Below are positions 1,691 through 64,000 of a stretch of DNA of 64,000 nt, one piece after another (within the stretch, counting starts at the first letter, position 1; the number at the start of each line of letters is the position of its first letter). The notes under the pieces were generated by a model. That model was not told the origin of the DNA. It was given only the letters and a program-made list of their open reading frames with translations, and made no database searches. This stretch comes from Candidatus Kuenenbacteria bacterium (GTDB taxonomy: Bacteria > Patescibacteriota > Patescibacteriia > UBA2196 > GWA2-42-15), in assembly GCA_012797775.1 (NCBI GenBank), contig JAAZOM010000029.1, positions 3,722-67,721 on the forward strand. Direction: 5' to 3'. The position numbers and the translations under genes were made by a program.

Positions 1691-2806
1691 ATGTTGATTT
1701 TGGGTATTGAAACATCTTGTGACGAAACAGCAGCAGCCGTTTTGGAAATAAAGAACGGCAGTTTTAGAATTTTGTCCAATTTGGTCTCTTCGTCGGTAGA
1801 ATTACAGGCACGGTATGGCGGTATTGTGCCAGAAGTGGCGGCCAGAAAACAGGTAGAATTTGTAATGCCGGTTTTAGAGCAGGTTAAAAAACTAGGAATT
1901 CCAAAAAATATTGATTATATTGCAGTAACAAGTGGTCCGGGGTTGATTACTTCACTTCGAGTGGGGGTGGAGGCGGCTAGAACATTGAGTTATATTTGGA
2001 AAAAACCCTTAATGCAGGTTAATCATTTGGAAGGACACATTTATTCAGCTTTGCTGAATAAAATTCAAAATTCAAAATTCAAAGTCCCTGCCTCGCCGGC
2101 AGGCGGGCAAAATAAACCACAAATCCAAAATAAAAATTTTCAAAGGTTGCCAAAGCTGGTATTCCCAGCGTTGGCGTTGGTGGTGTCTGGCGGGCACACG
2201 CAGTTGGTTTTGATGAGGAATTATTTAGATTACAAAATTATTGGGGAGACTCTGGACGATGCGGTGGGAGAGGCTTTTGATAAAGTGGCAAAAATTTTGG
2301 ATTTAGGTTATCCTGGCGGGCCGGTTATTGCAAAAATGGCCGAAGGGGGGGATAAAAGTAGTTTTGAATTGCCAAGGCCAATGATGAATAGCGGGGATTA
2401 TAATTTTTCTTTTGCAGGATTAAAGACGGCGGTTTTATATAAAACTTTAAATCATAAAAATGTTAAATCATTAAAACAAAAAAGAGATTTGTGTGCTAGT
2501 TTTCAGGAGGCCTGTGTAGATGTTCTCATCAATAAAACAATCAGGGCGGCAAAAGAATATAAAGTAAAGACAATATTGGTGGGTGGTGGTGTGGCGGCGA
2601 ATAAAGAATTAAGAGAAAGATTGGAGAGAGAGGCTGGCGAATTGAAGGGAGTAAAATTATTGATACCAGAAATAAAGTATACTGGTGATAATGCGGCGAT
2701 GATCGCTTTGGTAGGGTATTTTAGGACAATAAGAGCATTAAAGCGCAAAAGTATTAAAAAGGTAGACTGGGGGAAGGCAAAAGTGGATCCGAATATGGAG
2801 CTATAA
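1691..2806 (+). CDS. tsaD: tRNA N6-adenosine threonylcarbamoyltransferase TsaD (Kae1/YgjD family)
   Basis: N-terminus MLILGIETSCDETAAAVL plus conserved GPG and HLEGH motifs. It carries a ~30-aa low-complexity insertion (IQNSKFKVPASPAGGQNKPQIQNKNF) encoded by a repeat element. Confidence 0.9.
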   Translation: MLILGIETSCDETAAAVLEIKNGSFRILSNLVSSSVELQARYGGIVPEVAARKQVEFVMPVLEQVKKLGIPKNIDYIAVTSGPGLITSLRVGVEAARTLSYIWKKPLMQVNHLEGHIYSALLNKIQNSKFKVPASPAGGQNKPQIQNKNFQRLPKLVFPALALVVSGGHTQLVLMRNYLDYKIIGETLDDAVGEAFDKVAKILDLGYPGGPVIAKMAEGGDKSSFELPRPMMNSGDYNFSFAGLKTAVLYKTLNHKNVKSLKQKRDLCASFQEACVDVLINKTIRAAKEYKVKTILVGGGVAANKELRERLEREAGELKGVKLLIPEIKYTGDNAAMIALVGYFRTIRALKRKSIKKVDWGKAKVDPNMEL

Positions 2807-2861: not shown

Positions 2862-3425
2862 TTATATTTTATCGCGGAGTTTGAGATCGTAGATGATCGA
2901 TTCTATTTTCTTGAGATTGGTGCCGATGATTTCTAGTTTGGTCCGAGTGGAATTATTTCTAGTGATACTCAAAGGAATAATCAAATCATAGATTTTGGAG
3001 ACATAGTCGTGAATGGCTTTAACCTGTTTTTCGTTTTGATGGGCTAGCCGGACGAGTTCACCGGTCAGATCGGAGAGACCGCCGAGATAAGTGTCGGGCG
3101 TGACCTTGAGCGAGGTGGCAGTGGGCAGGGGTTTATTTTTTATATAATTGTAAAGTAGGACAGCCTCGACGTATTCTTCAAAACCGACATTGATGGCGGG
3201 GATGGCATAAAGATATGGATGGCGACCTAACTTTTTTTGAAGGACATCAAAGATTTTGTGCATTTCCGGTAAGTTTTTGACCACGGCCTCGGAATTATTT
3301 TTAATCAGAAAACTGATAGTTGATTTGGATAAAATTCGTAGCTTGTCGGAGAGATTCATGCAAGCGCTGCGTTCGCGGTTGTGCTCTTCGTAGAGCCTGT
3401 AGGGGATCTGGGGAAGTTTGGGCAT
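2862..3425 (-). CDS. Translin-family protein (putative)
   Basis: YLGGLSDLTGELVRLA resembles the translin/TRAX signature. Recognised by eye only. Confidence 0.4.
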   Translation of the reverse strand: MPKLPQIPYRLYEEHNRERSACMNLSDKLRILSKSTISFLIKNNSEAVVKNLPEMHKIFDVLQKKLGRHPYLYAIPAINVGFEEYVEAVLLYNYIKNKPLPTATSLKVTPDTYLGGLSDLTGELVRLAHQNEKQVKAIHDYVSKIYDLIIPLSITRNNSTRTKLEIIGTNLKKIESIIYDLKLRDKI

Positions 3426-9066: not shown

Positions 9067-9291
9067 ATGTCGACACCCACACAGAAACATACCAAGTCAA
9101 GAAAAAATATAAGAAGAGGAGCAATTCGCCTGAAAAAGATATCTTTGGCCAATTGTCCAAAATGTAAAAAACCCGTAAAACCACATACTGCCTGTGCTTT
9201 TTGTGGTAGTTATAAAGGTAAGGTGGTAAAAAAGGTGAGAGTGCCAAAATCCTTGCGTAAGTCCAAAAAACAGGAGAAGTCCAAAAAGTAA
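9067..9291 (+). CDS. rpmF: 50S ribosomal protein bL32 with C-terminal Lys-rich extension
   Basis: N-terminal KHTKSRKNIRRG and a CPKC..CAFCG zinc ribbon, typical of bL32. Confidence 0.8.
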   Translation: MSTPTQKHTKSRKNIRRGAIRLKKISLANCPKCKKPVKPHTACAFCGSYKGKVVKKVRVPKSLRKSKKQEKSKK

Positions 9292-9366
9292 CTAGTAACT
9301 AGCCCGCCTCGACTCGCATCGATGCGAGGCAGGTAACTGGTAATTTAAAATATTAAAAATAAAAAT

Positions 9367-9846
9367 ATGTCCAACCGTCATTTGGCGAGAACTGTGGCAA
9401 TGCAGATTTTATTTGAATGGGATTTTAATAATCGTTCACAAAAGCTGAATGAGGTTATTGATTATAACATGGCAGAGTTTGGAGTCGGGCTGGAGGAAGA
9501 TCGGGAATTTGTAGAAAAATTGGTGCGTGGGGTGGTGAAGAATATGGCAGAGATAGACAAGCTCATCGTACAATATGCGCCCGAGTGGCCAATAGAAAAA
9601 ATAACAATTATTGACAGGAGTGTTTTGCGTCTAGGTATTTATGAACTGACGTTTGGCAAAGAGGTGCCACCAAAGGTGGCCATAAATGAGTCAATAGAGG
9701 TGGCCAAAACATATGGTGGTGAATCTTCGGGGCGATTTGTAAATGGGGTTTTGGGATCTGTTTATCGCGATGTTCAGGGCGAGCAGGAGGGGATAATTAC
9801 ACCGGAGAGTTTTAAAAAACAAAATAATATAGTAACTAGTAACTAG
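9367..9846 (+). CDS. nusB: Transcription antitermination factor NusB
   Basis: RHLARTVAMQILFEW N-terminus, with NusB length. Confidence 0.85.
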   Translation: MSNRHLARTVAMQILFEWDFNNRSQKLNEVIDYNMAEFGVGLEEDREFVEKLVRGVVKNMAEIDKLIVQYAPEWPIEKITIIDRSVLRLGIYELTFGKEVPPKVAINESIEVAKTYGGESSGRFVNGVLGSVYRDVQGEQEGIITPESFKKQNNIVTSN

Positions 9847-20910: not shown

Positions 20911-21852
20911 ATGACAAAATTTTTAGTCGAATTAGGAGATGGGGGCAAAAGATTGGACCAATTTTTACAAGGAAAGCTGGGGGAGCTGTCGCGTTCACAG
21001 ATACAGAAAATGATTAAGGCCGGAGAAATAACCGTTGACGGAAAAGAGGTGGCAGTACATTATTTTTTAAAACCGGGGAATGAAATTAAAGTCAAAAGTC
21101 AATCCGCCAGCCGGCGGACAAAAGTCAATCCGCCAGCCGGCGGGCAAAAGTCAAAATTGGCGGGAATAAAAGTTATAAAAGAGGATAAGGATTATATTGT
21201 AGTAAATAAGCCAGCGGGGATGGTGGTGCACCCAGATACTATATACAAAGATAACGCTTTGGTTGATTGGCTAGTAAAGAAATATCCAGAGGTAAAAAAA
21301 GTGGGTGACGATCAAAAGCGACCGGGGATAGTACATCGTTTGGACAAAGATGTTTCTGGTCTTATGGTGGTAGCACGGACGCAAAAAATGTTTGATTATT
21401 TAAAAAAACAATTTCAAGATAGAAAAGTGGAGAAAGAATATCTGGCCTTGGTTCATGGTGTGGTAGTAAAAGATGAGGGCCTGATTGATAGGCCGATTGG
21501 CAGGACAGTTGGTGGGGTGATGGGTGTGGGATCAAAAAATAAAAAAAGTCGAGAAGCGGGAACACAGTATAGGGTGGTGGAAAGATTTAAAAATTTTACT
21601 TTATTAAAAATAAAGATTTTTACTGGGCGGACACACCAAATCAGGGCGCACATGAAATCGATTGGGCACGGCTTGATTGGCGACAATCTTTATGTGACGC
21701 GTGATATAAAAAGGAAAAAGAAACAAGAGGATTTGGGGCGAGTGTGGTTGTATGCTTGTCGGCTGGGTTTTAAAGATCTGGATGAGAAATGGCAGGAGTT
21801 TGAGGTGGCAATGCCAGAAGAATTAAAGTTGTTTTTGGGGAAGATAAAATAA
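20911..21852 (+). CDS. RluA-family 23S rRNA pseudouridine synthase (RluD-like) with S4 domain
   Basis: S4-like N-terminus and HRLDKDVSGLMVVART catalytic motif. Contains an in-frame tandem 26-bp repeat insertion (21093-21154). Confidence 0.85.
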   Translation: MTKFLVELGDGGKRLDQFLQGKLGELSRSQIQKMIKAGEITVDGKEVAVHYFLKPGNEIKVKSQSASRRTKVNPPAGGQKSKLAGIKVIKEDKDYIVVNKPAGMVVHPDTIYKDNALVDWLVKKYPEVKKVGDDQKRPGIVHRLDKDVSGLMVVARTQKMFDYLKKQFQDRKVEKEYLALVHGVVVKDEGLIDRPIGRTVGGVMGVGSKNKKSREAGTQYRVVERFKNFTLLKIKIFTGRTHQIRAHMKSIGHGLIGDNLYVTRDIKRKKKQEDLGRVWLYACRLGFKDLDEKWQEFEVAMPEELKLFLGKIK

Positions 21853-30011: not shown

Positions 30012-30668
30012 ATGACACAATTTTTAAACATAAAAAATAAGAAAGTGGTGGGAGTTGCTGTTGAGGTGTTAAATTCTGGTGGTGTTTTGGTATTTCCGAC
30101 AGAGACGGCTTATGGGCTGGCGGCGGACGCTGGGAGCAAAAAGGCGATTGAAAAGATTTATAAAATTAAAGGCAGGATGGCTAGTAAGTTTTTGCCATTA
30201 ATTGTAGGAAGCTTGAAGCAGATGCAGGAATTTTTTGAATTGGGCGAAAAAGAATTAGAGTTGGCAAAGAAGCATAAGGGGTTGACAATTATATTGAAAA
30301 TCAAAAATCCCCGGCCTCGACAAGCGAAGCGGGGCGGGCAAAAATCAAAAATAAGGAAGATTTATTTATTAAAAGGGCAGAATGATTGTGCGGTGAGAAT
30401 TTCTAAATATAAATTGGCGAGAGAGCTGGCCCTAAAATTGGGTCGGCCAATCACAGCCACCAGCGCCAATGTAAGTGGTGGAGAGAATTGTTATGGCTTA
30501 GAAGAAGTCACCGGCCAATTAAAAAATATAAAAACTCAGCCAGACTTGATTATTGATGGGGGTAGATTAAAAAAAAGAAAACCCTCAACTATTGTGAGGG
30601 TTGAGGGCGGAAAGGTGGAAGTGGTGAGACGGGGGGAGATAAAAATAAACTCAAAAGTTAAAACTTAA
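30012..30668 (+). CDS. tsaC: L-threonylcarbamoyladenylate synthase TsaC/YrdC (Sua5/YciO/YrdC family)
   Basis: VFPTETAYGLAADA motif. Contains an in-frame repeat-element insertion (30296-30355). Confidence 0.8.
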   Translation: MTQFLNIKNKKVVGVAVEVLNSGGVLVFPTETAYGLAADAGSKKAIEKIYKIKGRMASKFLPLIVGSLKQMQEFFELGEKELELAKKHKGLTIILKIKNPRPRQAKRGGQKSKIRKIYLLKGQNDCAVRISKYKLARELALKLGRPITATSANVSGGENCYGLEEVTGQLKNIKTQPDLIIDGGRLKKRKPSTIVRVEGGKVEVVRRGEIKINSKVKT

Positions 30669-38154: not shown

Positions 38155-39777
38155 TTACAAACTTTTTACCATGTAGGTATTTTCTAGTTTATAGCCCAGT
38201 TTTTTATAATAACCGCGGACGCCGATGCCGGAGATAATCGAGAGTTTTTGATAATGATTTTGGTGCGTGATTTTTTCGGCTTGGGTGAGGAGTTTTTTGC
38301 CAAGGCCAGTATGCTGAACGGCACCTTTTTGATTAAGGGGGACCATTTCGCCATAAGTGTGGAGCTCGCGAAGGAGGGCGGTAGGTTGGTAGGGAGGTAG
38401 GTTGGTAGGGAGGTAGGTTGGTAAGAAGAGGCGGCAGAAGGCATAGAGAATTTTTTGGTCCGGCGATTCATAGCTCAAAAAATATTCGGTGCCGTTGGAT
38501 ACTGGATAGGTTCTAATAAATAATTTAGGATTTAGGACTTTGGATTTATTTGGAAATTGGAAATTGGAAATTGGAAATTGATTTTGGTGCCCGGCTTCAC
38601 GGCAACGGATACATTGGCAAGTGAGATTTTGTTTAGTCATGGAAAATTTTATTTCCTGGCGGAGGTTGGTGATTTTGTTGCCAGCAATAATGGATTCTTC
38701 CGGAATGTCTCTGATAATTCTAATCAGGCGTACCCAGGGTGGAGTGATGGTTTTTATTTTAATAATTAAATTGGTCAGGGCTTTGTCTGAATAGGCATGC
38801 CATTTACCTTTTTGCCACCATTGATAGAGAAGAGAATTTCGGGCGACAACGCAGGGATAAATTTTAATTTGGTCAGGCTGAAAGTGCGGGTCGGAATAAA
38901 TACGCTTGAACATCGTTAAGTCTTTGGCTGGGGTAGAGCCGGGTAGATTAAGCATCAGATGGTAAGTAATTTTAAAACCAAATTGACGGAGTAGGGCAGT
39001 AGCTTTGATAGTTTGAGCAACGAGGTGGCCGCGTTTGTTGAGTTTGAGAATTTGATCATCAAGATGCTGGACGCCGATTTCCACGCGCGTACAACCAAGG
39101 AGACGCATAGTTTGTAATTCTTTTTCATTGATATAGTCGGGCCGAGTTTCTAGGGTAAGACCAATGATACGATTGGTGGCAGATTCGTTTTTTTTCTGCT
39201 CGTGCAAGAGTTGTTTTTGCAGGAGTTGGGTATTTAACGCTTTGTTAGCTTTTTTATTTTTGGGAAAGTCATTGGCGGCACGAAAACATTCTTTAATAAA
39301 CCAGAATTGATATTTTTTTGGATAATAGGACCAGGTGCCACCGAGGACAATTAATTCTAATTTATCAGTAGCGTGCCCGTTGTTTTGGAGAGCGCGGAGG
39401 CGCATCTGGACTTGTTTATAAGGATCAAATTTGCAAAGCACGGCGCGCATAACGGCTGGTTCATTTTTGAGATAGCTGACGGGCATTTTTTTCTGATGTG
39501 GACAATAGGCACAGGTGCCGGGGCAGGGATGGGGCTTGGCCAAAACGGTGACGGCGGCAATACCAGAAAGAGTGCGGACTTTGCGCTTGCGTAAAAATTT
39601 TAAAAGATGTGAATGGGGCTCATGTGTCTTTTTTAATTCTAGTAAAAGTTCAGAGTTGGTCGGCGGTTCAGCCATTTTAAATTTTTTGGCAAAGAGACGT
39701 TTGGCCACGGATAATTCTTCCTCGGCTTGAGGAGGATTTTTTTGGAGATATTTGATTAGCTCAGAAGAGATGGACAT
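38155..39777 (-). CDS. Elp3-like radical SAM + GNAT acetyltransferase (tRNA wobble-uridine modification family)
   Basis: Radical-SAM cysteine cluster CPGTCAYCP and a C-terminal GNAT motif (HTGLGKKLL). Carries two in-frame short tandem repeat insertions (38381-38428, 38553-38582). Confidence 0.7.
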   Translation of the reverse strand: MSISSELIKYLQKNPPQAEEELSVAKRLFAKKFKMAEPPTNSELLLELKKTHEPHSHLLKFLRKRKVRTLSGIAAVTVLAKPHPCPGTCAYCPHQKKMPVSYLKNEPAVMRAVLCKFDPYKQVQMRLRALQNNGHATDKLELIVLGGTWSYYPKKYQFWFIKECFRAANDFPKNKKANKALNTQLLQKQLLHEQKKNESATNRIIGLTLETRPDYINEKELQTMRLLGCTRVEIGVQHLDDQILKLNKRGHLVAQTIKATALLRQFGFKITYHLMLNLPGSTPAKDLTMFKRIYSDPHFQPDQIKIYPCVVARNSLLYQWWQKGKWHAYSDKALTNLIIKIKTITPPWVRLIRIIRDIPEESIIAGNKITNLRQEIKFSMTKQNLTCQCIRCREAGHQNQFPISNFQFPNKSKVLNPKLFIRTYPVSNGTEYFLSYESPDQKILYAFCRLFLPTYLPTNLPPYQPTALLRELHTYGEMVPLNQKGAVQHTGLGKKLLTQAEKITHQNHYQKLSIISGIGVRGYYKKLGYKLENTYMVKSL

Positions 39778-39914: not shown

Positions 39915-40727
39915 ATGAATAATGAACAAGCAAAAAGAATAATGGAAATTAGCAAAAAGACCTACGAGATGATTGCGGCGGATTTTTCAGCGACGAGAAA
40001 TAGGGTGTGGCCCGAGATGGAGATATTGGTCAAAAAGTATGTAAAGCCGGGGATGAAGGTGTTGGATTTGGGGTGTGGGAATGGGAGACTTTTGGAGGTT
40101 TTACCGGAGGTGGAATATTGGGGAGTGGACGTGTCAGAAGGATTGGTGGGAGAGGCAGAAGATAAACTCAAAACTCAAAACTCAAAACTCAAAACAGTTT
40201 TTAGGGTGTTGGATATGTTGGAGCTGGAAAAACTGGGAGAGAAAAATTTTGATGTGGTATTTATGTTTGCGAGTTTGAACCATATTGCGGGAGAAGAAAA
40301 TAGATTGAAAGTTTTGGAAGAGATAAAAAAAATATTAAAGCCGGGCGGAGTGGTGGTGATGACGAATTGGAATATGTGGCAGGTGGGGGCGGGGAAGAAC
40401 ATGTGGAGATATAAATTACAATTTTCAAGATACAAGATACAAGATACAAATAAATCCCAAATTTCAAATTCCAAATCCAAAATAAATCCCAAATTTCAAA
40501 TTCCAAAATTTGGTTTAGGATTTAGGGATGCGATGACGAGATGGCAGAGTGGAGACAAAAAAAGGGTCGGGGAGCTTTATTACCGAGCGTTTAATTTGGT
40601 GGAGTTGAGAAAATTGATGCGGGAGGCGGAGTTTGAGGTGGTGGAGAATTATTATTCTTTGGATGGGAAGAGGGCGTGTTGGTGGAATGGAAGGAATATT
40701 GTGAGTGTGGGAAAATTTAATGGATAA
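39915..40727 (+). CDS. Class I SAM-dependent methyltransferase
   Basis: VLDLGCGNGRL motif I. Contains in-frame heptamer repeat insertions. Confidence 0.75.
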   Translation: MNNEQAKRIMEISKKTYEMIAADFSATRNRVWPEMEILVKKYVKPGMKVLDLGCGNGRLLEVLPEVEYWGVDVSEGLVGEAEDKLKTQNSKLKTVFRVLDMLELEKLGEKNFDVVFMFASLNHIAGEENRLKVLEEIKKILKPGGVVVMTNWNMWQVGAGKNMWRYKLQFSRYKIQDTNKSQISNSKSKINPKFQIPKFGLGFRDAMTRWQSGDKKRVGELYYRAFNLVELRKLMREAEFEVVENYYSLDGKRACWWNGRNIVSVGKFNG

Positions 40728-40756: not shown

Positions 40757-43615
40757 ATGAAAAAGGAAAAAATAGCTATAATTGATGCCAATGCAATAGT
40801 CCATCGGGCGTTTCATGCCCTGCCGCCTTTGATGACCAAGGACGGGGTTCTGGTCAATGCGGTCTATGGTTTTGCCAATATTTTATTGAAAGTTTTGAAA
40901 GACATAAAGCCGGAATATGTGGCGGTGTGTTTTGACGTATCGAAAGAAACTTTTCGCTTGGAAATGTATAAAGAGTATAAGGCGCAAAGGGAAAAGCAGC
41001 CTGATGAATTGTATAGCCAAATTGATTTGGTGAAAGAGATGATTGGGGCGTTTAATATGTCGATTTTTGCCGTAAAGGGGTTTGAAGCCGATGATTTGAT
41101 AGGGACTATTGTAAAAAAAATCCAAAATTTTAATGTCAAACAAAATCCAAAATCCAAAATCCAAAAAGGGAACGAAATTGAGAGTGTGGTTGTGACGGGG
41201 GATATGGATACTTTGCAGCTGATAGGTGATAATACCAAAGTTTACACTCTAAAAAAAGGCATTGCAGATACAATTATTTATGATGAGACGGCGGTCAGAG
41301 CGCGGTATGGATTTGGCCCGGAGGCAATGGTTGATTACAAGGCGCTTAGAGGCGATCCGTCGGATAATATACCGGGAGTGAAAGGTATAGGGGAGAAGAC
41401 GGCAACGGAATTGATAAAAGAATTTGGGACGCTGGAAAAAGTGTATGAGTATGTTGAACAAACCCAAAATCCAAAATCCAAATTTCTAATCAAATCCAAA
41501 ATCCAAAATCAAAAAGATTTAAAAATAAAAGGAGCGGTATTAGAGAAATTGATGGAGCATAAAAAAGAAGCGTTTTTGTCCAAGGAGTTGGCGACGATTA
41601 AGACAGATGTGCCAATGAAATTTGACTTGGAAGGGTGCCGAGTGAGACCATTTGACGCACCAAAAATTGTAGAATTATTTCAGGCGTGGAATTTTAAATC
41701 ATTGATCGCCCGAATTCCCGCAGCGGAAAAAGAGCTGACAAGGGGGCAGGGGAGTTTGTTTGCTAAAAGAGAGGAGACTAGAGAAGAAAGAAAGGTTGAT
41801 TTTGAAATAGGAAAAGGATATATATTGGTTGATAGCCAAGAGAAAGTAGAAAGGTTTTTGGTGGAACTCGGAAAACAAAAAATATTTGCCATTGATACAG
41901 AGACAAATGGGCTGGATCCGTTTCAGGCTGATTTGATTGGAATTAGTTTTAGTTTTGAAGAGGGGAAAGGGTATTACCTGCCTGTCGGAAGAAATTTTCA
42001 ATTTTCAATTTTCAATTTTCAATTATTATTAAATAAATTAAAACAGATTTTGGCGGATGGGGGTATTAAGAAGGTGGGGCATAATATTAAATTTGATATG
42101 GAGACTTTGGCTGGGGCGGGATTGGAACTGAAAGGAGTGGAATTTGATACCATGGTGGCGTCTTATCTTTTGAACCCGGGGACAAGACAGCACAATCTTG
42201 ATGCGGTGGTATTCACTGAATTTGGTTATGAGATGACACCGATAGAGAGTCTGATAGGTAAGGGGAAAGACCAGATTACAATGGATAAAGTAGAATTAAA
42301 CAGGGTGGCGGATTATGCGATTGAGGATGCTGACTATACTTGGCGGTTGTATAAAAGATTGGACAAACAATTGATAAAAAACAAATTGCGAGAATTGATG
42401 GATAAAATTGAGACGCCATTAATTTCAGTTTTGGCTGAAATTGAGAAAAATGGGGTTTTGGTTGATGTAAAATTTCTTGGCAAGATGAGTCGTGAAGCAG
42501 GGGAAAGAATAAAAGAATTGGAGAAAAAGATTTATAAAATGGCAGGGCGGGAATTTAATGTGCGTTCGCCAATACAACTTAAAGAGGTTTTGTTTGATGA
42601 GATGGGGATTTCAAGGTTGGGGTTGGCAAAAACCAAAACGGGAACCTCAACAGCCGCAGCAGAGCTGGACAAACTGCAGGGCGTTCATCCGATTATTGAT
42701 TTGATTTTGGAGCATCGGGAATTGTCAAAATTGAAGAGCACCTATACAGATGCTTTGCCGGAGTTGATAAACCCAAAGACCGGCCGGATCCATGCTTCAT
42801 TTAATCAGACAGTAACAGCGACCGGGAGGCTGTCATCTTCAGAGCCAAACTTACAAAATATTCCTATCAGAACAGAATTGGGCAAAAAAATTAGGCAGGC
42901 ATTTGTGGCACCCAAGGGTTTTAAGATAGTAACGATAGATTATTCGCAGATAGAGCTCAGGATTGCGGCTTCAATGTCGGGTGATAAGAAAATGTTGCAA
43001 GCTTTTAAAAATAGTGAGGATATCCATCGGCGAACGGCGGCAGAGGTTTTTGGTGTAAAACCAGAAGCGGTGACACCAGAAATGAGGCGCAAGGCCAAAG
43101 AAGTAAACTTTGGGGTTTTGTATGGGCTGGGGGCTAGGGGCTTGGCGCAGAGAACCGGGACGAGTTATGAAGAGGCAATGCTTTTTATTGAAAAATATTT
43201 TGAGATATTTGGTGATTTGAAAAATTATTTGGAGGAAACCATTGAGCAGGCACATGAAAATGAATATGTGGAGACGCTTTTTGGCCGGAAACGTTATTTG
43301 CCAGAGATCAATGCTGAACACCAACAGCTAAGGGCGGCAGCAGAGAGAATGGCGGTCAATCAACCAATCCAAGGTACGGCGGCTGACCTGATGAAGCTGG
43401 CGATGATAAAAATAGATGAGATGCTTAAAAAAGATAAGCTTGGGGAGATAAAAATGGTTTTGCAGGTGCATGATGAGTTGGTATTCGAAGCTCCAGACAA
43501 TATGGCAGAGGTGATTGGCAAAAAAATGAAAGAAACGATGGAAAGTGTTTATAAATTTAAGTGTCCAATAGTGGCAGAGATGTCTATTGGTAATAATTGG
43601 GGAGAATGTAAATAA
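40757..43615 (+). CDS. polA: DNA polymerase I
   Basis: 5'-3' exonuclease N-terminus, 3'-5' exonuclease-like middle, pol A motifs (DYSQIELR, QVHDELVFE). Three in-frame repeat insertions. Confidence 0.95.
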   Translation: MKKEKIAIIDANAIVHRAFHALPPLMTKDGVLVNAVYGFANILLKVLKDIKPEYVAVCFDVSKETFRLEMYKEYKAQREKQPDELYSQIDLVKEMIGAFNMSIFAVKGFEADDLIGTIVKKIQNFNVKQNPKSKIQKGNEIESVVVTGDMDTLQLIGDNTKVYTLKKGIADTIIYDETAVRARYGFGPEAMVDYKALRGDPSDNIPGVKGIGEKTATELIKEFGTLEKVYEYVEQTQNPKSKFLIKSKIQNQKDLKIKGAVLEKLMEHKKEAFLSKELATIKTDVPMKFDLEGCRVRPFDAPKIVELFQAWNFKSLIARIPAAEKELTRGQGSLFAKREETREERKVDFEIGKGYILVDSQEKVERFLVELGKQKIFAIDTETNGLDPFQADLIGISFSFEEGKGYYLPVGRNFQFSIFNFQLLLNKLKQILADGGIKKVGHNIKFDMETLAGAGLELKGVEFDTMVASYLLNPGTRQHNLDAVVFTEFGYEMTPIESLIGKGKDQITMDKVELNRVADYAIEDADYTWRLYKRLDKQLIKNKLRELMDKIETPLISVLAEIEKNGVLVDVKFLGKMSREAGERIKELEKKIYKMAGREFNVRSPIQLKEVLFDEMGISRLGLAKTKTGTSTAAAELDKLQGVHPIIDLILEHRELSKLKSTYTDALPELINPKTGRIHASFNQTVTATGRLSSSEPNLQNIPIRTELGKKIRQAFVAPKGFKIVTIDYSQIELRIAASMSGDKKMLQAFKNSEDIHRRTAAEVFGVKPEAVTPEMRRKAKEVNFGVLYGLGARGLAQRTGTSYEEAMLFIEKYFEIFGDLKNYLEETIEQAHENEYVETLFGRKRYLPEINAEHQQLRAAAERMAVNQPIQGTAADLMKLAMIKIDEMLKKDKLGEIKMVLQVHDELVFEAPDNMAEVIGKKMKETMESVYKFKCPIVAEMSIGNNWGECK

Positions 43616-56734: not shown

Positions 56735-56955
56735 GCATAACGTACGCGTGTATGTGATGTCCGCCGTTAGGCGGATATGGGCGAAGGTTCACCGATAGGG
56801 GAACCGTAGCCACATACACGCTGTTATATGATGTACGCTTTTTCTTTTAACCCAATAGGGTCGTTTTTCTGTTATAGATCAAATTGATTTTTCATTTGGC
56901 GGGGGCGCAAGAGGGAAAATCAAAAAGGGTGAATTGCGCCCCCCGCCAACACAAT
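56735..56955 (-). ncRNA. Structured noncoding leader element, copy 1 (upstream of the NUDIX gene)
   Basis: An 11-bp outer stem GCGTGTATGTG/CACATACACGC encloses two hairpins. Conserved single-stranded TGATGT, ATATGGG.G.AGG and GTTATATGATGT blocks. A second hairpin has the conserved loop GAGGGAAAAT.AAAGGGTGAA. It is homologous to 59372-59660 with compensatory stem changes. Confidence 0.45.
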
Positions 56956-59371: not shown

Positions 59372-59660
59372 TTCATACAACGTTTCGGCATATCTGATGT
59401 TTGCCGTAGCGTAGCGGAGGCAAATATGGGTGGAGGCTTTTGTATAAAAGCCGTAACCAGATATGCCGTGTTATGTGATGTGCATGTTTTACTTTAATCC
59501 CGATAGCAATCGGGCTTGCTCTAAAAAAGAATTTTAATTTTGTTTTTTTGTTTTGGATTTTGGGCAGAGGGGTTAGGGGTGAATGCCCAAAATCCAAAAC
59601 TCCTTATTTTGTTTGAGGGAGGGGCAAGAGGGGAAATAAAGGGGTGAATTGCCCCAACCG
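59372..59660 (-). ncRNA. Structured noncoding leader element, copy 2 (upstream of the cassette)
   Basis: Same architecture as 56735-56955, with outer stem CGGCATATCTG/CAGATATGCCG (compensatory). Includes an extra inverted repeat TTTTGGATTTTGGGCA..TGCCCAAAATCCAAAA. Confidence 0.45.
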
Positions 59661-59668
59661 AAAACGCT

Positions 59669-60715
59669 CTATTTCTTTTTTGTATAATATTTATCAAATT
59701 TTTTCACAATATTCGGGCTATAAAAATCTTTTCTGGAACTTTTTGTATTATCAGGATCAAGATAGCGTGTTCTGCTCAAATTTTTGTCTTTCATTAATTC
59801 TTTACGAAGTTTGTGAAATTTACCGTTCGTCTTAAAATCACCAAATCGTTTATTTAATTCTTTTACTAAACCGCGATAATCAAGCGGATATTTTTTCTTT
59901 AAAATTTCTTCCTCTTCAAGCCTCATGGCTGGCGCATTTGGATCATCTGTTATTTGAACGCCTAAACCGTTTTTACTTTTTCCTGCAACTATTGAAACTG
60001 GTTTGACATCTCCAATAAGTCTTAATACTGGCTTTCCTTTTTCTTGAAAATTACCCTGATTTATAAATTTTAATTTTGGAATCAGTTTTTTATCTATGAC
60101 AAGCGTTCCACCTTTCCCAGTTATTTCTCCGCCGATAGTATCCATAATTGCCGCGTTTGTTGGACCAATTTTTGATATTTTTTCAAAATGCTCCAGCCAG
60201 CCTTTTCTTTCCTCTTCTTTAACAAAATCAAACATCGCTATTATTTCCGGATATTTTATCCTTTCACTTCTTGCATTGTAGCGATAATAAATATCTGCCT
60301 CTTTTAATTCGCCATCATTTTTTAGACACACAATCGGTTTTGTCTTTGCTTGTTGCGTATACAATAATCCAATTTTTTTGGTATTTACGGTTATTTCAAA
60401 TTTTTCAAAAATTATTTCTGGGGCAAAGACACTGTTTAGGTACGCGGTAATTTTAGCTTCGTCCACCTCTTCAAAATTATTGCTTTGAAGTCCAACAAGA
60501 TCACGCGGTTTATCTTTTATCCCGAAAACAATATATCCGCCCTTATTGTTTGCAAAAGCAACCATGCTTTTTGCGTATTTGTCTTTTGAATTCCAGTTGA
60601 AAGATTCTTTAAATTCAAGCCACCCACTTTCACGCGAGATTATTCTATCTGCGATTGTTTCGTGGAACAAAAAAATCTTGTTGTATTCATCGTTATTTTT
60701 AAAATCATTGCTCAT
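59669..60715 (-). CDS. AlbA_2 (Schlafen-like) domain protein
   Basis: ESGWLEFKESF and VAFANNKGGYIVFGIKDK match the AlbA_2/divergent-AAA DNA-binding domain signature. Its start is 2 nt after the res stop. Confidence 0.6.
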   Translation of the reverse strand: MSNDFKNNDEYNKIFLFHETIADRIISRESGWLEFKESFNWNSKDKYAKSMVAFANNKGGYIVFGIKDKPRDLVGLQSNNFEEVDEAKITAYLNSVFAPEIIFEKFEITVNTKKIGLLYTQQAKTKPIVCLKNDGELKEADIYYRYNARSERIKYPEIIAMFDFVKEEERKGWLEHFEKISKIGPTNAAIMDTIGGEITGKGGTLVIDKKLIPKLKFINQGNFQEKGKPVLRLIGDVKPVSIVAGKSKNGLGVQITDDPNAPAMRLEEEEILKKKYPLDYRGLVKELNKRFGDFKTNGKFHKLRKELMKDKNLSRTRYLDPDNTKSSRKDFYSPNIVKKFDKYYTKKK

Positions 60716-60717
60716 AT

Positions 60718-63006
60718 TTATTTTAGATCAAAAACTTCCCACCCTTTCATTGATGAATCAAAAGAATACTTTGCGTTGCGGTTAATTTTCCAGCCATTCG
60801 GGCCGTCTTGGACGGCTATACCGCCGTCAAAATCTTTTCTGCCTTTCAGCCACGCTTGCAAGGCCTCCGCTTTATATTTTGTATCGTTACTCTCGGCGGT
60901 AATACCAGCTTTTGTATCAATAATTATAACGCCCTTTTTAGTCTTAATGATCCAGTCAGGATAAAATAGTTTTTCTTTGTTCTCATCGGGGTTATAGTAG
61001 GAAATTGAAAAATGCTCACTTCCATTGTCGCCGTTTTTATGCCACCAAATTACGCTTTTATTTTGAGGCGATTCGAGAAACTTGATAAAGTTTTTCTCAT
61101 TATCGTTTCCGCCGAAAAGCCCTGCTTGAGTTTTTTCAAACCAAAAAGGTTCCATTGCTGATTTTTTGACCGCCAATTCCTCGTATTGATCGGTAAAAAA
61201 TAATGCTTCGCGCGGTATTTCAATATGCTCCACGCGCTTCGCGCGTGCCGCTTTTTTATTTACTTCTTGCTCACGGACAGGGCGATATGCTAAAAGTGCA
61301 TCACCGATTACTGGCGCGAGTGCGCCAGCTTCACCAACTAAATCGTTCACAATAACTTTGTAAACGTCCGCGCGTGAAAGTTTTAACTTCTCCATTAGAT
61401 AAATATTGAGTGCGGTTTTGAGCTTGCCCCATGAACGTTCTGGCGCAAATTTACGGTTTTCGTCGGTTTGTTTGGCGACAATTTTGAAACACAATAGATT
61501 ATATAATCGTTCAAGATCATGGCGAGACATTTCTTCATCATAACTCCCGCCTTCTTCAAAAAGCTCCTTTGTAAAATTGTCATAATCGTCAATTTCCACA
61601 CCGACAATTAAGCCGTTTGTAACCTTGGGCTTTAGGTTTAGCTTTTTTGTATCCAGTTTTTTATCCGCTACTTGCTTGAAAGTATTTTGGAATGAATCAC
61701 CCAAGTCGTTATAGTCCGCACGTGTCATAAAGACGGATTCCAGTTTGATCGGTTCAACATTTTTCTTGCGATAACTGCCGTTGATTGCGGGACGGTTTTC
61801 GGTTTTGGATTTTGCGTATTCCGCCAAAACTTCGTTGCGCTTATAGTTAGTGTAAAGATAACCAAGATTAAGTTCGGGGTTGGCAAAGTGGGTGCCAAAT
61901 GGCATACGTAAAATACGCCCGACGGTCTGTATTGCAAAAGTCGGATTCTTTATCTCGCGGAACATCACCAACACGCTCGCGCGCGGACAATCCCAGCCAG
62001 TCGCGACGGCTTGTTTGAACAAGAGAAACGAAACAGGCGAGTTGTGTTTTTCTAAATCTTCCAAATTTTCTTTTTCCTTGGAGAGCCAAACGGCAATTTC
62101 ATCGTTTTTTACACCTTTGCGTTTTAGATACTCCAATACAATCGTCTGTTTAGTTGTGTCACTCGTTTCTTTGCTTGCTTGATCGTCATTTGGAAGTTGA
62201 ATTAAAACAAGTGGATTAACTTCAACGCCGATCTTTTTGTACAAATCAATCAATTCTTTCCGTTTGGAATACGCTAATTCCAAAAGCATTTCGTCTTGGT
62301 CAAGTTTTTTGACGGCTTTCTGTTTTAAATCTTCTTCTGTCTGAAAAACAATTTTTTCTTTGATTAACCCTGCTTCAACGACATCACTTCGCTTTGCTTC
62401 AACATATCCCGCAGTTTCGGCGCGAGTAGGAATATATTTCGGCGTAGCCGACACGCGAAGCGTGATTTTTGGTTTGATAAGTCCATCCACCACTTCCATA
62501 GCAAGATCGGTGTCGCTTCCGATATGTTCCTCATCAATAATTACAACAATTTTGCGTCCTGCGTCGTGGGTTTCGTTGATAAAATTATCAAAAGTCAACC
62601 CTTGCTCATTTTCACGGCGTAATTTACGACTATCCTTGCTTTTGCCTTTTATTTTCTGCCAGTTTATAAAAAAGACATCATTTTGATGAAGTTTCTCGCG
62701 CGAAAGGTCGTTTAAGTCAATTAAATCAAGCTCACTTGCTCCGCCATAATAATCAAAAAGTTTCTTTTTGCTCTGTTCGTAAGAATCCTCGCTGAAAGAA
62801 AACCACACAAAAGCTACATCATTGCCCTGAAATCGGGGATCGCTGACAATATCGCGCAAAAATTGTGCCAACATTATCGTTTTACCGCTTCCAGTCGGCG
62901 ATTTAAAAACAAGCGGTATATTTTGATTTGGCAATTTCCACAAATTCAAAAACTGATCTTTGAGTTGTGATATTGCTGTTTCTTGAAATGGTTTTAAAGC
63001 AAACAT
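60718..63006 (-). CDS. res: Type III restriction enzyme Res subunit (helicase-like)
   Basis: Walker A SPTGSGKT and DEAH-like IIDEEH, with SF2 helicase motifs. 762 aa. Confidence 0.85.
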   Translation of the reverse strand: MFALKPFQETAISQLKDQFLNLWKLPNQNIPLVFKSPTGSGKTIMLAQFLRDIVSDPRFQGNDVAFVWFSFSEDSYEQSKKKLFDYYGGASELDLIDLNDLSREKLHQNDVFFINWQKIKGKSKDSRKLRRENEQGLTFDNFINETHDAGRKIVVIIDEEHIGSDTDLAMEVVDGLIKPKITLRVSATPKYIPTRAETAGYVEAKRSDVVEAGLIKEKIVFQTEEDLKQKAVKKLDQDEMLLELAYSKRKELIDLYKKIGVEVNPLVLIQLPNDDQASKETSDTTKQTIVLEYLKRKGVKNDEIAVWLSKEKENLEDLEKHNSPVSFLLFKQAVATGWDCPRASVLVMFREIKNPTFAIQTVGRILRMPFGTHFANPELNLGYLYTNYKRNEVLAEYAKSKTENRPAINGSYRKKNVEPIKLESVFMTRADYNDLGDSFQNTFKQVADKKLDTKKLNLKPKVTNGLIVGVEIDDYDNFTKELFEEGGSYDEEMSRHDLERLYNLLCFKIVAKQTDENRKFAPERSWGKLKTALNIYLMEKLKLSRADVYKVIVNDLVGEAGALAPVIGDALLAYRPVREQEVNKKAARAKRVEHIEIPREALFFTDQYEELAVKKSAMEPFWFEKTQAGLFGGNDNEKNFIKFLESPQNKSVIWWHKNGDNGSEHFSISYYNPDENKEKLFYPDWIIKTKKGVIIIDTKAGITAESNDTKYKAEALQAWLKGRKDFDGGIAVQDGPNGWKINRNAKYSFDSSMKGWEVFDLK

Positions 63007-63008
63007 AA

Positions 63009-64000
63009 TTATATCCTGTTAATTTCTTTGTAAACTTCAATAATCGGCTCTGGAATATCTTCGACTCTGATATTCGCGGACGAATACTCGCCTTTGTATT
63101 CGTTTTTACCCCAGCTGAAAATATATAAAGCCGTCGGTAAATTTTTCTTTTCCAATTTGGCTATTAACTCGCCGAGCTTTGTCTTGTCTTCCTTAAAATA
63201 AATTGCGGTTAATTTTCCATTACCTTCAAAAATTTGCCACCAATCATTTTTCTCAATTTCATTGAGCGTATCTTCTCGCACCCCGATCATTTCGCCTGCT
63301 TCGTAGGTTATGCGGATTTTCGCTTCGTCCGGCACTTTGTGGATTTGCTCAATGTCCACGAGGTCGGTTTGGTAATAAAAAAGATTACTTGGAATACCAG
63401 CGACTCTCTCATTTTTTTTGTTCTTGTAGCCGTTAATAACTGCCTTAATACGCGGATAGCAAACTGATTCAGCAATTCCGCCGTTTCCACCGTTGTTGTT
63501 TTCGTTGTTGGTGCAAAGAATAAATTTACGATTGCCACCGTCAATCTTGTTCATTTCTAAAACAGCGTGTCCAGTTGTCCCAGATCCAGCGAAAAAATCC
63601 AAAACATTTGCATTTGGACGCGATCCTACAACGGCAAAGAGACAATCGTAAACAGTATAGAGTGACTTAGGAAAGTCAAAATCACACTTTGGTAATATCT
63701 CACGCAAAAGTTTTGTTCCGTATTCACTTGCGTCGTATTTTTTGTCAGTCCAAACAGTTTTATAAGTGCCGTAATCTTTCGCAATCATTATTTGAACAAT
63801 GCCACCGCGTGATTCTTTAATTTGGAGGATGTCTTTTATTTCTTCAACGCTTTGTCGTGCGTATCGCCATTTTCGCTCGACACCTTTTTCGTCAATCGGC
63901 CAAATATAAATACTACCGTCTTTTTGTTTTTCGTTTGCCGATTTTGGATGAAATTCGTTTGACGCAACATCACCAAAACCAATAATCTTTCCACCTTTTA
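63009..64000 (-). CDS. mod: Type III N6-adenine DNA methyltransferase Mod subunit (5' end outside window)
   Basis: DFFAGSGTTGHA (FxGxG motif I) in the C-terminal part. The frame stays open to the window edge. Confidence 0.8.
   Translation of the reverse strand, partial: KGGKIIGFGDVASNEFHPKSANEKQKDGSIYIWPIDEKGVERKWRYARQSVEEIKDILQIKESRGGIVQIMIAKDYGTYKTVWTDKKYDASEYGTKLLREILPKCDFDFPKSLYTVYDCLFAVVGSRPNANVLDFFAGSGTTGHAVLEMNKIDGGNRKFILCTNNENNNGGNGGIAESVCYPRIKAVINGYKNKKNERVAGIPSNLFYYQTDLVDIEQIHKVPDEAKIRITYEAGEMIGVREDTLNEIEKNDWWQIFEGNGKLTAIYFKEDKTKLGELIAKLEKKNLPTALYIFSWGKNEYKGEYSSANIRVEDIPEPIIEVYKEINRI

Follow-up and report, generated by a model that had tools for sequence, protein, structure and literature searches.

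Small palindromic repeats are known from several sources, each in a narrow host group: the repetitive extragenic palindromes (REPs), the Rickettsia palindromic elements (RPEs) and the GC clusters of mitochondria. Here we examine a set of GC-rich hairpins in a 64,000-nucleotide stretch of a Candidatus Kuenenbacteria genome (NCBI GenBank assembly GCA_012797775.1, contig JAAZOM010000029.1, positions 3,722 to 67,721 of the forward strand; hereafter the window). The hairpins occupy four sites, in five copies, over these 64 kb, and three of the four sites are intragenic, in tsaD, rluD and tsaC. One of them, the 21-nt unit of tsaD, is found identical across the Candidate Phyla Radiation (CPR), Bacteroidota, Acidobacteriota, Omnitrophota, Planctomycetota, Proteobacteria and others, in essential genes as readily as between genes.

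REPs are GC-rich non-autonomous hairpins of 20-40 bp that show no target duplication, lie in some cases within genes, form dimers and nested arrangements and, in some families, occur in several species (PMC3733652, PMC2817692). They carry an unpaired GTAG or CGTC tag at one end and are largely lineage-specific (PMC3733652). The 21-, 30- and 31-nt units of the window fit the description of foldable GC palindromes of 20-40 bp, the 15-nt unit of rluD lying below the usual size. However, GTAG, CTAC, CGTC and GACG are absent from the 21-, 30-, 31- and 15-nt units, their flanks are unconserved, and whereas REPs are mostly extragenic and species-specific, the 21-mer has one identical sequence in many phyla and is often part of a coding sequence. 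RPEs are selfish palindromes found in frame in unrelated housekeeping genes, translated and tolerated at permissive sites; they occur in Rickettsia only, measure about 100-150 bp and have a single frame that encodes a conserved peptide (PMC10969869). The hairpins described here likewise sit in frame inside housekeeping genes at permissive loops, but they measure 15-36 nt, use six frames and, for the 21-mer, occur in many phyla. The GC clusters of yeast and other fungal mitochondria are GC palindromes scattered through an AT-rich genome that are mobile and horizontally transferred and that merge and nest; occasionally one lies in a protein gene such as var1, and a putative AG or TAG target duplication has been described (PMC4478555). 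The window, too, has GC palindromes against a 40% GC background, and composites occur at related loci (L113, L123, L134 and L143), but here the hosts are bacterial chromosomes, there is no duplication and the hairpins are tied to 7-nt arrays.

MITEs, or miniature inverted-repeat transposable elements, are also non-autonomous and multi-copy, and sometimes form in-frame fusions (PMC10969869). They run to roughly 50-500 bp, end in inverted repeats that match a parent insertion sequence (IS) and have target duplications; by comparison, the units here are far smaller, consist of a single hairpin and have neither a duplication nor an evident parent IS. Members of the IS200/IS605 group (HUH Y1) insert seamlessly by hairpin-dependent, single-strand 'peel-and-paste', without duplication, with a strand bias relative to replication, and require a conserved 4-5-nt target 5' of the element together with a TnpA that is encoded by the element or supplied in trans. 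The seamless, duplication-free insertion of a hairpin unit is similar here, but no base is conserved at -8 to -1 across 126 copies and no TnpA was found in the places searched. REPs, RPEs and GC clusters are the nearest analogues of the hairpins, which behave like them and yet lack a defining feature of each.

Hairpin units and their boundaries

We refer to the tsaD unit as V1, the intergenic unit as V3, the tsaC unit as V4 and the rluD unit as V5. The window features are as follows; gene identities of the tsaD, RluA-family and tsaC open reading frames (ORFs) were assigned by homology.

1691..2806, plus strand: tsaD ORF, with V1 in the loop between HLEGHIYSALL and FPALALVVSGGHT
2058..2086, plus strand: 7-nt array upstream of V1, CAAAATT three times and then CAAAGTC; target array, outside the element
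2087..2107, plus strand: V1, 21-nt GC hairpin CCTGCCTCGCCGGCAGGCGGG, followed by an invariant C at 2108; in tsaD, read as PASPAGG
2108..2146, plus strand: degenerate heptads downstream of V1, CAAAATA AACCACA AATCCAA AATAAAA ATTTTCA..., the remainder of the low-complexity loop
9284..9302, plus strand: AGTAACT heptads beside V3; the array resumes in phase at 9334-9343
9303..9333, minus strand: V3, 31-nt hairpin CCTGCCTCGCATCGATGCGAGTCGAGGCGGG (minus-strand reading); intergenic, 12 nt past the rpmF stop codon
20911..21852, plus strand: rluD ORF, RluA-family pseudouridine synthase, with the hairpins in the linker from the S4 to the catalytic domain
21093..21154, plus strand: 26-nt tandem duplication (CAAAAGTCAAT plus hairpin), 2.4 copies, inside the CAAAAGT array of rluD
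21104..21118, plus strand: V5 copy 1, 15-nt hairpin CCGCCAGCCGGCGGA; in rluD, read as SASRR
21130..21144, plus strand: V5 copy 2, 15-nt hairpin CCGCCAGCCGGCGGG; in rluD, read as PPAGG
30012..30668, plus strand: tsaC ORF, with V4 in a loop hypervariable across 120 orthologues
30296..30308, plus strand: left part of the tsaC target array (CAAAAAT/AAAAATC), uninterrupted in L124
30309..30338, plus strand: V4, 30-nt GC hairpin CCCCGGCCTCGACAAGCGAAGCGGGGCGGG; in tsaC, read as PRPRQAKRGG
30339..30352, plus strand: right part of the tsaC target array (CAAAAAT), from the comparison with L124

The hairpins stand out from the window in composition (about 80-93% GC, against 40% for the window). The string GGCGGGCAAAA occurs exactly three times where 0.09 occurrences are expected, a count reached in none of 100 shuffles, and each time it forms the 3' end of a GC hairpin within a 7-nt tandem array, in tsaD, rluD and tsaC. 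Folded as DNA, the hairpin segments reach -8.5 to -13.5 kcal/mol (z-scores -1.6 to -3.8), and the 21-, 30- and 31-nt units fold on their own at -8.5 to -10.7 kcal/mol. A first-pass annotation of the window, made from the sequence, had located the three genic hairpins and the tandem duplication in rluD, and all of these are present as described. It had missed the fourth copy, V3, which is intergenic and reversed.

To which letters the element extends is a separate matter. The 7-mer on the two sides of each hairpin is the same, and it is specific to the site: CAAAATT, CAAAAGT, CAAAAAT or AGTAACT. The CAAAA heptads and the CAAAA tail, which had been taken as parts of the element, are thus variable by site, and they run uninterrupted in an orthologue that has no hairpin; they are pre-existing target arrays, and the tail is simply the start of the next heptad. 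That orthologue is a tsaC gene with 76% protein identity (L124), which reads AAAAATC AAAAATC AAAAATC AAAAATA where the window reads GAAAATC AAAAATC [30 nt] AAAAATC AAAAATA, so that exactly 30 nt are inserted with zero extra units. A second empty site comes from two further TsaC orthologues (L152 and L153), which differ by exactly 21 nt, CCTGCCTACCGGCGAGGCAGA, at a heptad boundary. A target duplication would show in this pair because the adjoining units differ in sequence, and none is present. At the third (L113), a 21-mer splits the loop of another common hairpin (gtcattcccgcgaaag^cgggaatcc), again with 21 nt and no duplication. Target-site duplication was therefore found in none of the three empty-site comparisons.

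The phase of the repeats around array-embedded copies gives the same lengths. In 18 non-redundant copies of the tsaC type, deleting 30 nt brings 112-114 of 126 junction positions back into the 7-nt periodicity, and any other length gives at most 73 of the 126. In 10 copies of the tsaD type, deleting 21 nt restores 51 of 70 positions, with any other length giving no more than 29. From the empty sites and the phase test together, the units are 21 nt in tsaD, 30 nt in tsaC and 15 nt, twice in tandem, in rluD, all multiples of three; the intergenic unit is 31 nt long. The hairpins are thus discrete, sharp-edged units, precisely inserted without target duplication and, within arrays, exactly between repeat units. 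In this the first-pass annotation, which had distinguished them from simple microsatellites, was right. It had also spoken of one element in three genes; the units are instead different members of a family, sharing only the frame CC(Y)GCC...GGCGGG.

Dispersal, reading frames and arrays

To follow the units beyond the window, we scanned one genome per GTDB species for the exact tsaD 22-mer (the 21-mer and the following C, with R at position 20), and JGI metagenomes for a 26-nt core of the 30-mer. The 22-mer was found at at least 120 genome loci, with 126 copies having full flanks among the matches listed. Hosts were assigned by record title. Among the matches listed, CPR bacteria account for 34 loci, Bacteroidota and relatives for 29 (including the isolates Namhaeicola litoreus and Salinimicrobium nanhaiense), Omnitrophota for 16, Acidobacteriota for 12, Proteobacteria for 8 and Planctomycetota for 5. 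Elusimicrobiota, Eremiobacterota, Armatimonadota, Nitrospirae, Bdellovibrionales, Melainabacteria, Myxococcota and one Bathyarchaeota metagenome-assembled genome (MAG) contribute singletons or pairs, and 7 loci lie in unclassified 'bacterium' records. By their labels, the genomes with the 21-mer thus represent at least ten phyla, and some MAGs have six or more hits of the 22-mer. The match in Sorangium, a 70%-GC genome, could be a chance coincidence, and binning errors could account for some MAG matches; the spread across phyla is nonetheless real, as isolates and megabase contigs are among the hosts.

We then asked what surrounds these 126 copies. No base is conserved from -8 to +8, the strongest 5' signal being a T at -2 in 42%. 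Direct-repeat flanks of at least 6 nt border about 20% of the copies, against 5.5% of controls, and inverted flanks, with the unit nested in a larger palindrome, border about 20%, against 5% of controls; the remaining 60% have neither. The tsaC core gave 25 metagenome loci, all of 34-44% GC and in different genes, and about 22 of the 25 lie inside 7-nt arrays, in phase. The heptads that host them include CAAATCT, GAAAATT, CCGAAAT, CAGAATT, CAAAAAT, CTCAACT, CAAAACT, CAAATTT, CCAATTT and CAAAGAC. At one locus (L143), a 21-mer variant and a 30-mer lie one unit apart in the same CAAAAGT array; at another (L123), there are tandem 21-mers, two of which bear a 15-nt insertion in the loop; and a third (L134) has a 42-nt composite hairpin. 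From these composites, the hairpin family nests and merges.

Other sequences were less productive. Apart from those overlapping the 22-mer, no 14-mer is widely common to the at least 120 loci, and a fuzzy search of the 120 genome loci for the tsaC, rluD and intergenic variants recovered only the intergenic copy of a sister strain. Two of the four hairpin types, those of tsaD and tsaC, are dispersed in unrelated genes. This bears out the first-pass suggestion of a discrete, dispersed and probably mobile hairpin element: exact copies of both occur at many unrelated loci, and orthologues without them exist, the opposite of the outcome that the annotation had named as its refutation.

Several other short GC-rich hairpin strings recur across several genomes and labelled phyla, namely gtcattcccgcgaaagcgggaatcc, gtcattgcgag...gcaatc and cccctcc..ggagggg (at L113, at L005, L053, L071, L085, L087 and L097, at L056 and at L119). 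The 21-mer is sometimes nested in the loops of these recurrent hairpins and may be one of several such families. At a further 21-mer locus (L103, 4010-4470), a small GIY-YIG-like ORF lies between two direct copies of a sequence resembling the 3' half of a tRNA, each of them followed by the 21-mer hairpin; insertion into a tRNA was considered for this locus and rejected, ARAGORN calling no tRNA.

Over the compared stretch, and among 120 homologues of each protein, the loop at the insertion site ranges over 33-75 residues in TsaD and 31-69 in TsaC and reaches 85 in RluD. CPR proteins have this loop occupied by low-complexity sequence derived from heptads (NNFQFSIFNFQ, KNQKSKIKNQ and similar), with occasional hairpin-type peptides. 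Most orthologues of TsaD, TsaC and RluD lack the hairpins, including the nearest TsaC relatives (71-80% identity), which are without the 30-mer. The tsaD insert itself is present in three independent assemblies (the NCBI contig and Logan ERR7570001 and ERR7570003). A sister strain that is 98% identical in nucleotide sequence over about 20 kb (L001, L126) has the tsaD and intergenic hairpins, V3 being conserved in L001, and a wholly different rluD loop without hairpins in L126. About 75-100 nt of the rluD linker are entirely different between the two (window 21103-21190 and L126 10193-10261), and the difference extends to the right of the hairpins, which suggests replacement of the allele by recombination, or very fast turnover. 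A distant TsaD (L003, 52% identity) has the 21-mer with one G-to-A change in the same loop and the same AAAATTC array, and TsaD orthologues intermediate between it and the window are without it. This pattern fits repeated gain and loss at a permissive site and does not fit an inherited linker.

Insertion into a coding sequence has consequences for the protein. The tsaD 22-mer contains no stop codon in any of its six frames, and, among the matches listed, ORFs of 150 codons or more contain about 61 of the 126 copies, in all six frames: PASPAGG in 28 copies, PPAGEAG in 12, ARLPARQ in 8, LPRRQAG in 7, PACRRGR in 4 and CLAGRRA in 2. The 30-mer is read in all three forward frames, as PRPRQAKRGGQ, PGLDKRSGAG and PASTSEAGRA. 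The bias of the 22-mer towards readings rich in Pro, Ala, Gly and Ser, the least disruptive ones, is as would be expected if insertion were blind to frame and selection purged the worse outcomes. As units in genes are multiples of three and stop-free, they are read through as an extra loop. An AlphaFold2 model of the window TsaD, confident on the whole (mean predicted local distance difference test score, pLDDT, 88.9), places the insert between a helix (112-122) and a strand (160-165); no segment other than the insert itself, residues 126-141, falls below 50, so the model predicts a disordered loop.

The first-pass annotation had held that the element has the same orientation and frame in every case. 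The two rluD copies, however, read SASRRT and PPAGGQ, because the 26-nt unit shifts the frame, and across genomes six frames are used, with a bias to the mildest peptides, while the fourth window copy is reversed. The apparent uniformity in the window thus reflects a small sample and selection, and is not a property of the element.

Seven-nucleotide arrays are themselves a feature of the window. It contains 12 perfect 7-nt tandem repeats against 0.55 expected, with periods 4-6 and 8-12 near expectation. Among others, they lie at 2060-2083, 38550-38580, 40164-40195, 40426-40449, 41141-41166, 41464-41510 and 41993-42024, and most are inside ORFs (radical SAM, methyltransferase, PolA), where they translate as low-complexity loops such as KLKTQNSKLKT, QNPKSKIQ and NFQFSIFNFQ. 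Among the matches listed, 11 of 35 CPR copies of the 21-mer are in arrays. In CPR at any rate, 7-nt arrays are preferred sites of insertion. The orientation of the hairpin is coupled to the A-rich strand of the array for the 30-mer (20 vs 4) and uncoupled for the 21-mer (5 vs 4), a comparison confounded by coding-strand selection.

Origin of the hairpins

We hold, with moderate confidence, that the hairpins are copies of tiny (15-36 nt), dispersed, non-autonomous GC-rich palindromic insertion elements, forming one family framed by 5' CC(Y)GCC(TCG) and 3' GGCGGG. Copies are inserted at tolerant places, namely intergenic spacers, the loops of other palindromes and, chiefly, 7-nt arrays in the surface loops of CPR proteins. 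Those in genes would be translated as short disordered loop peptides, and purifying selection would leave mainly the mildest frames, such as PASPAGG. The elements would have no host function and would spread selfishly within genomes and, in the case of the 21-mer, between phyla.

Several observations weigh against this reading. There is no conserved 5' target motif in the 126 copies, which insertion of the IS200/IS605 type would predict, and no REP-like GTAG or CGTC tag in the unit sequences. No REP or MITE family resembles the 21-mer in being letter-perfect from one phylum to another. For the rluD 15-mer, the fuzzy search of the 120 genome loci gave no further copy, so that only resemblance places it in the family. 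No trans-acting enzyme was identified in ten window ORFs or within 2 kb of the hairpins at the 120 loci: Pfam gave no transposase-like domain in the ten ORFs, and clustering of the ORFs around the 120 loci gave no family in more than five, results that at the same time speak for non-autonomy. RAYT, the Y1 tyrosine transposase that mobilises REPs, was likewise not seen among these ORFs or in the 2-kb surroundings of the loci, although a single copy acting in trans elsewhere in the genome is possible. Nor is a vector for transfer between phyla evident, as the 2.9 million viral contigs of IMG/VR contain no match to the 22-mer, the tsaC core or the intergenic variant, and blastn against PLSDB plasmids and INPHARED phages gave no clear full-length match, with noise-level partial ones among the matches listed. 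Finally, the strong association between hairpins and 7-nt arrays might reflect a different mechanism shared by both.

How such elements would move is less certain still. Possibly, by analogy with REP/RAYT and IS200/IS605, a single-stranded folded hairpin is inserted at replication forks or slipped-strand structures and mobilised in trans; the main alternative route would be copying between arrays by template switching. We also entertain, as a tentative proposal, that the 21-mer and its relatives are an undescribed class of mobile element: bare 15-36-nt hairpins without their own transposase, seamlessly inserted by machinery common to most bacteria. A nuclease-resistant hairpin oligonucleotide, for example, might be ligated or strand-transferred at nicks or slipped-strand loops during replication. 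Insertion by common machinery would explain an identical 21-mer in ten or more phyla, and it may also be linked with the production of 7-nt arrays throughout CPR genomes. Full-text searches of about 8 million papers and preprints gave no match to the DNA strings or to six peptide translations, and no description of these hairpins was found in the literature on CPR, heptanucleotide repeats and palindromic insertions.

Alternatively, the hairpins may be spread by recombination, through template switching or short-homology gene conversion between 7-nt arrays at stalled replication, the arrays supplying microhomology and no transposing enzyme being needed. The many copies in arrays (about 22 of 25 for the tsaC type and, among the matches listed, 11 of 35 for the CPR 21-mer), in phase and without duplication, are in keeping with this, as are the two different hairpins in one L143 array and the whole replacement of the rluD loop between strains of 98% identity. 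A CCCT sub-variant of the 30-mer is also found in CAAAAAT arrays of three unrelated genes (L135, L136/L151 and L137). We nevertheless regard recombination as an unlikely explanation: 60% of the 21-mer copies have no flanking repeat of any kind, copies stand in unique contexts in many phyla and nested in the loops of other palindromes, and the heptads around one hairpin type vary so widely that little homology is available.

Much less probable is a transposon that duplicates 7 bp of target, the heptad arrays being accumulated excision footprints. The excess of period 7 is specific (12 vs 0.55 expected), the hairpins sit exactly between units with the same heptad on either side, and some other hosts have 8-nt arrays (L018, L052). 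Yet none of the three empty-site comparisons shows an extra unit, one that would have been visible in L152 against L153; most non-CPR copies of the 21-mer lack direct-repeat flanks; and an insertion of 30+7 or 21+7 nt would disrupt the reading frame.

It is more improbable again that the hairpins are selected as signals at the RNA or DNA level, such as for pausing of ribosomes, stability of the mRNA, termination or the binding of a protein. They are stable, the sequence of the 21-mer is strongly conserved, and V3, 12 nt past the rpmF stop codon, is also present in the sister strain, where it is conserved. Their position, however, is not conserved, most orthologues have no hairpin, and copies occur in all frames, both orientations, unrelated genes and spacers. 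V3 in particular was considered as a canonical terminator and set aside, as no T-run follows the hairpin and a terminator scan was empty; Rfam scans at gathering and E-value thresholds returned tRNAs and noise, and nothing at the hairpins.

We give very little credence to an assembly or sequencing artefact, or to removal of the inserts after transcription, whether by translational bypass of the 'byp' kind or by intron-like excision. Neither has direct support; bypassed inserts did arise from GC clusters in some yeast mitochondria (cited in PMC4478555). Against an artefact stand the three independent assemblies with the tsaD insert and the occurrence of copies in isolates and in short-read and, by contig names, long-read assemblies; against bypass, the checked in-gene copies are multiples of three and the 21-mer is stop-free in any frame. 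The frame bias points to translation of the inserts, which makes bypass unnecessary. Least credible of all is an ordinary, vertically inherited linker, that is, lineage-specific low-complexity GC segments alike by chance: the tsaD hairpin does recur at the same loop of the L003 TsaD, but intermediate orthologues are without it, empty sites are known, and identical DNA at at least 120 unrelated loci, with GGCGGGCAAAA three times against 0.09 expected, refutes the idea.

If the hairpins are insertion elements, as we favour, they would rank with the smallest dispersed insertion units reported from bacteria, and either some mobilising activity would have to be very widespread or phyla would have to exchange DNA by an unrecognised route. 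The odd peptides that recur in proteins predicted from metagenomes (PASPAGG, LPRRQAG, PRPRQAKRGGQ and others) would be explained, as would the hypervariable loops of CPR proteins, and the insertions could be used as strain-level presence/absence markers. The in-phase link between hairpins and arrays would also give a handle on how 7-nt arrays, striking in the window and in CPR-like contigs, arise.

Further repeats and neighbouring genes

An (AGTAACT)n array stands at two gene ends 540 nt apart, at 9287-9302 and 9830-9846. The first follows the rpmF stop codon and carries the V3 hairpin; the second encodes the final nusB residues and the stop codon, and the array gives stops in all three frames. 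A 16-nt tandem repeat, AGGGAGGTAGGTTGGT, is present in 3.1 copies at 38375-38423, in a minus-strand radical-SAM ORF that reads it as LPTYLPTNLPPYQPT.

Three intergenic hairpins (56901-56943, 59550-59600 and 59621-59655) have a common loop motif, ..GCAAGAGGG.. A-rich ..GGGTGAAT(T)GC... In the middle hairpin (59550-59600), inverted CAAAATC heptads make up the stem. The three have no Rfam match; they may represent a small RNA not yet described or a motif bound by a protein.

Next to tsaD, the sister-strain counterpart of window 2862-3425 (minus strand) is annotated with the Pfam Translin family (PF01997), a family more typical of eukaryotes and archaea than of bacteria. Towards the end of the window, at 59669-63788 on the minus strand, lies a defence-like cluster of a Schlafen/AlbA_2 protein, a ResIII-type helicase and an N6/N4 DNA methylase.

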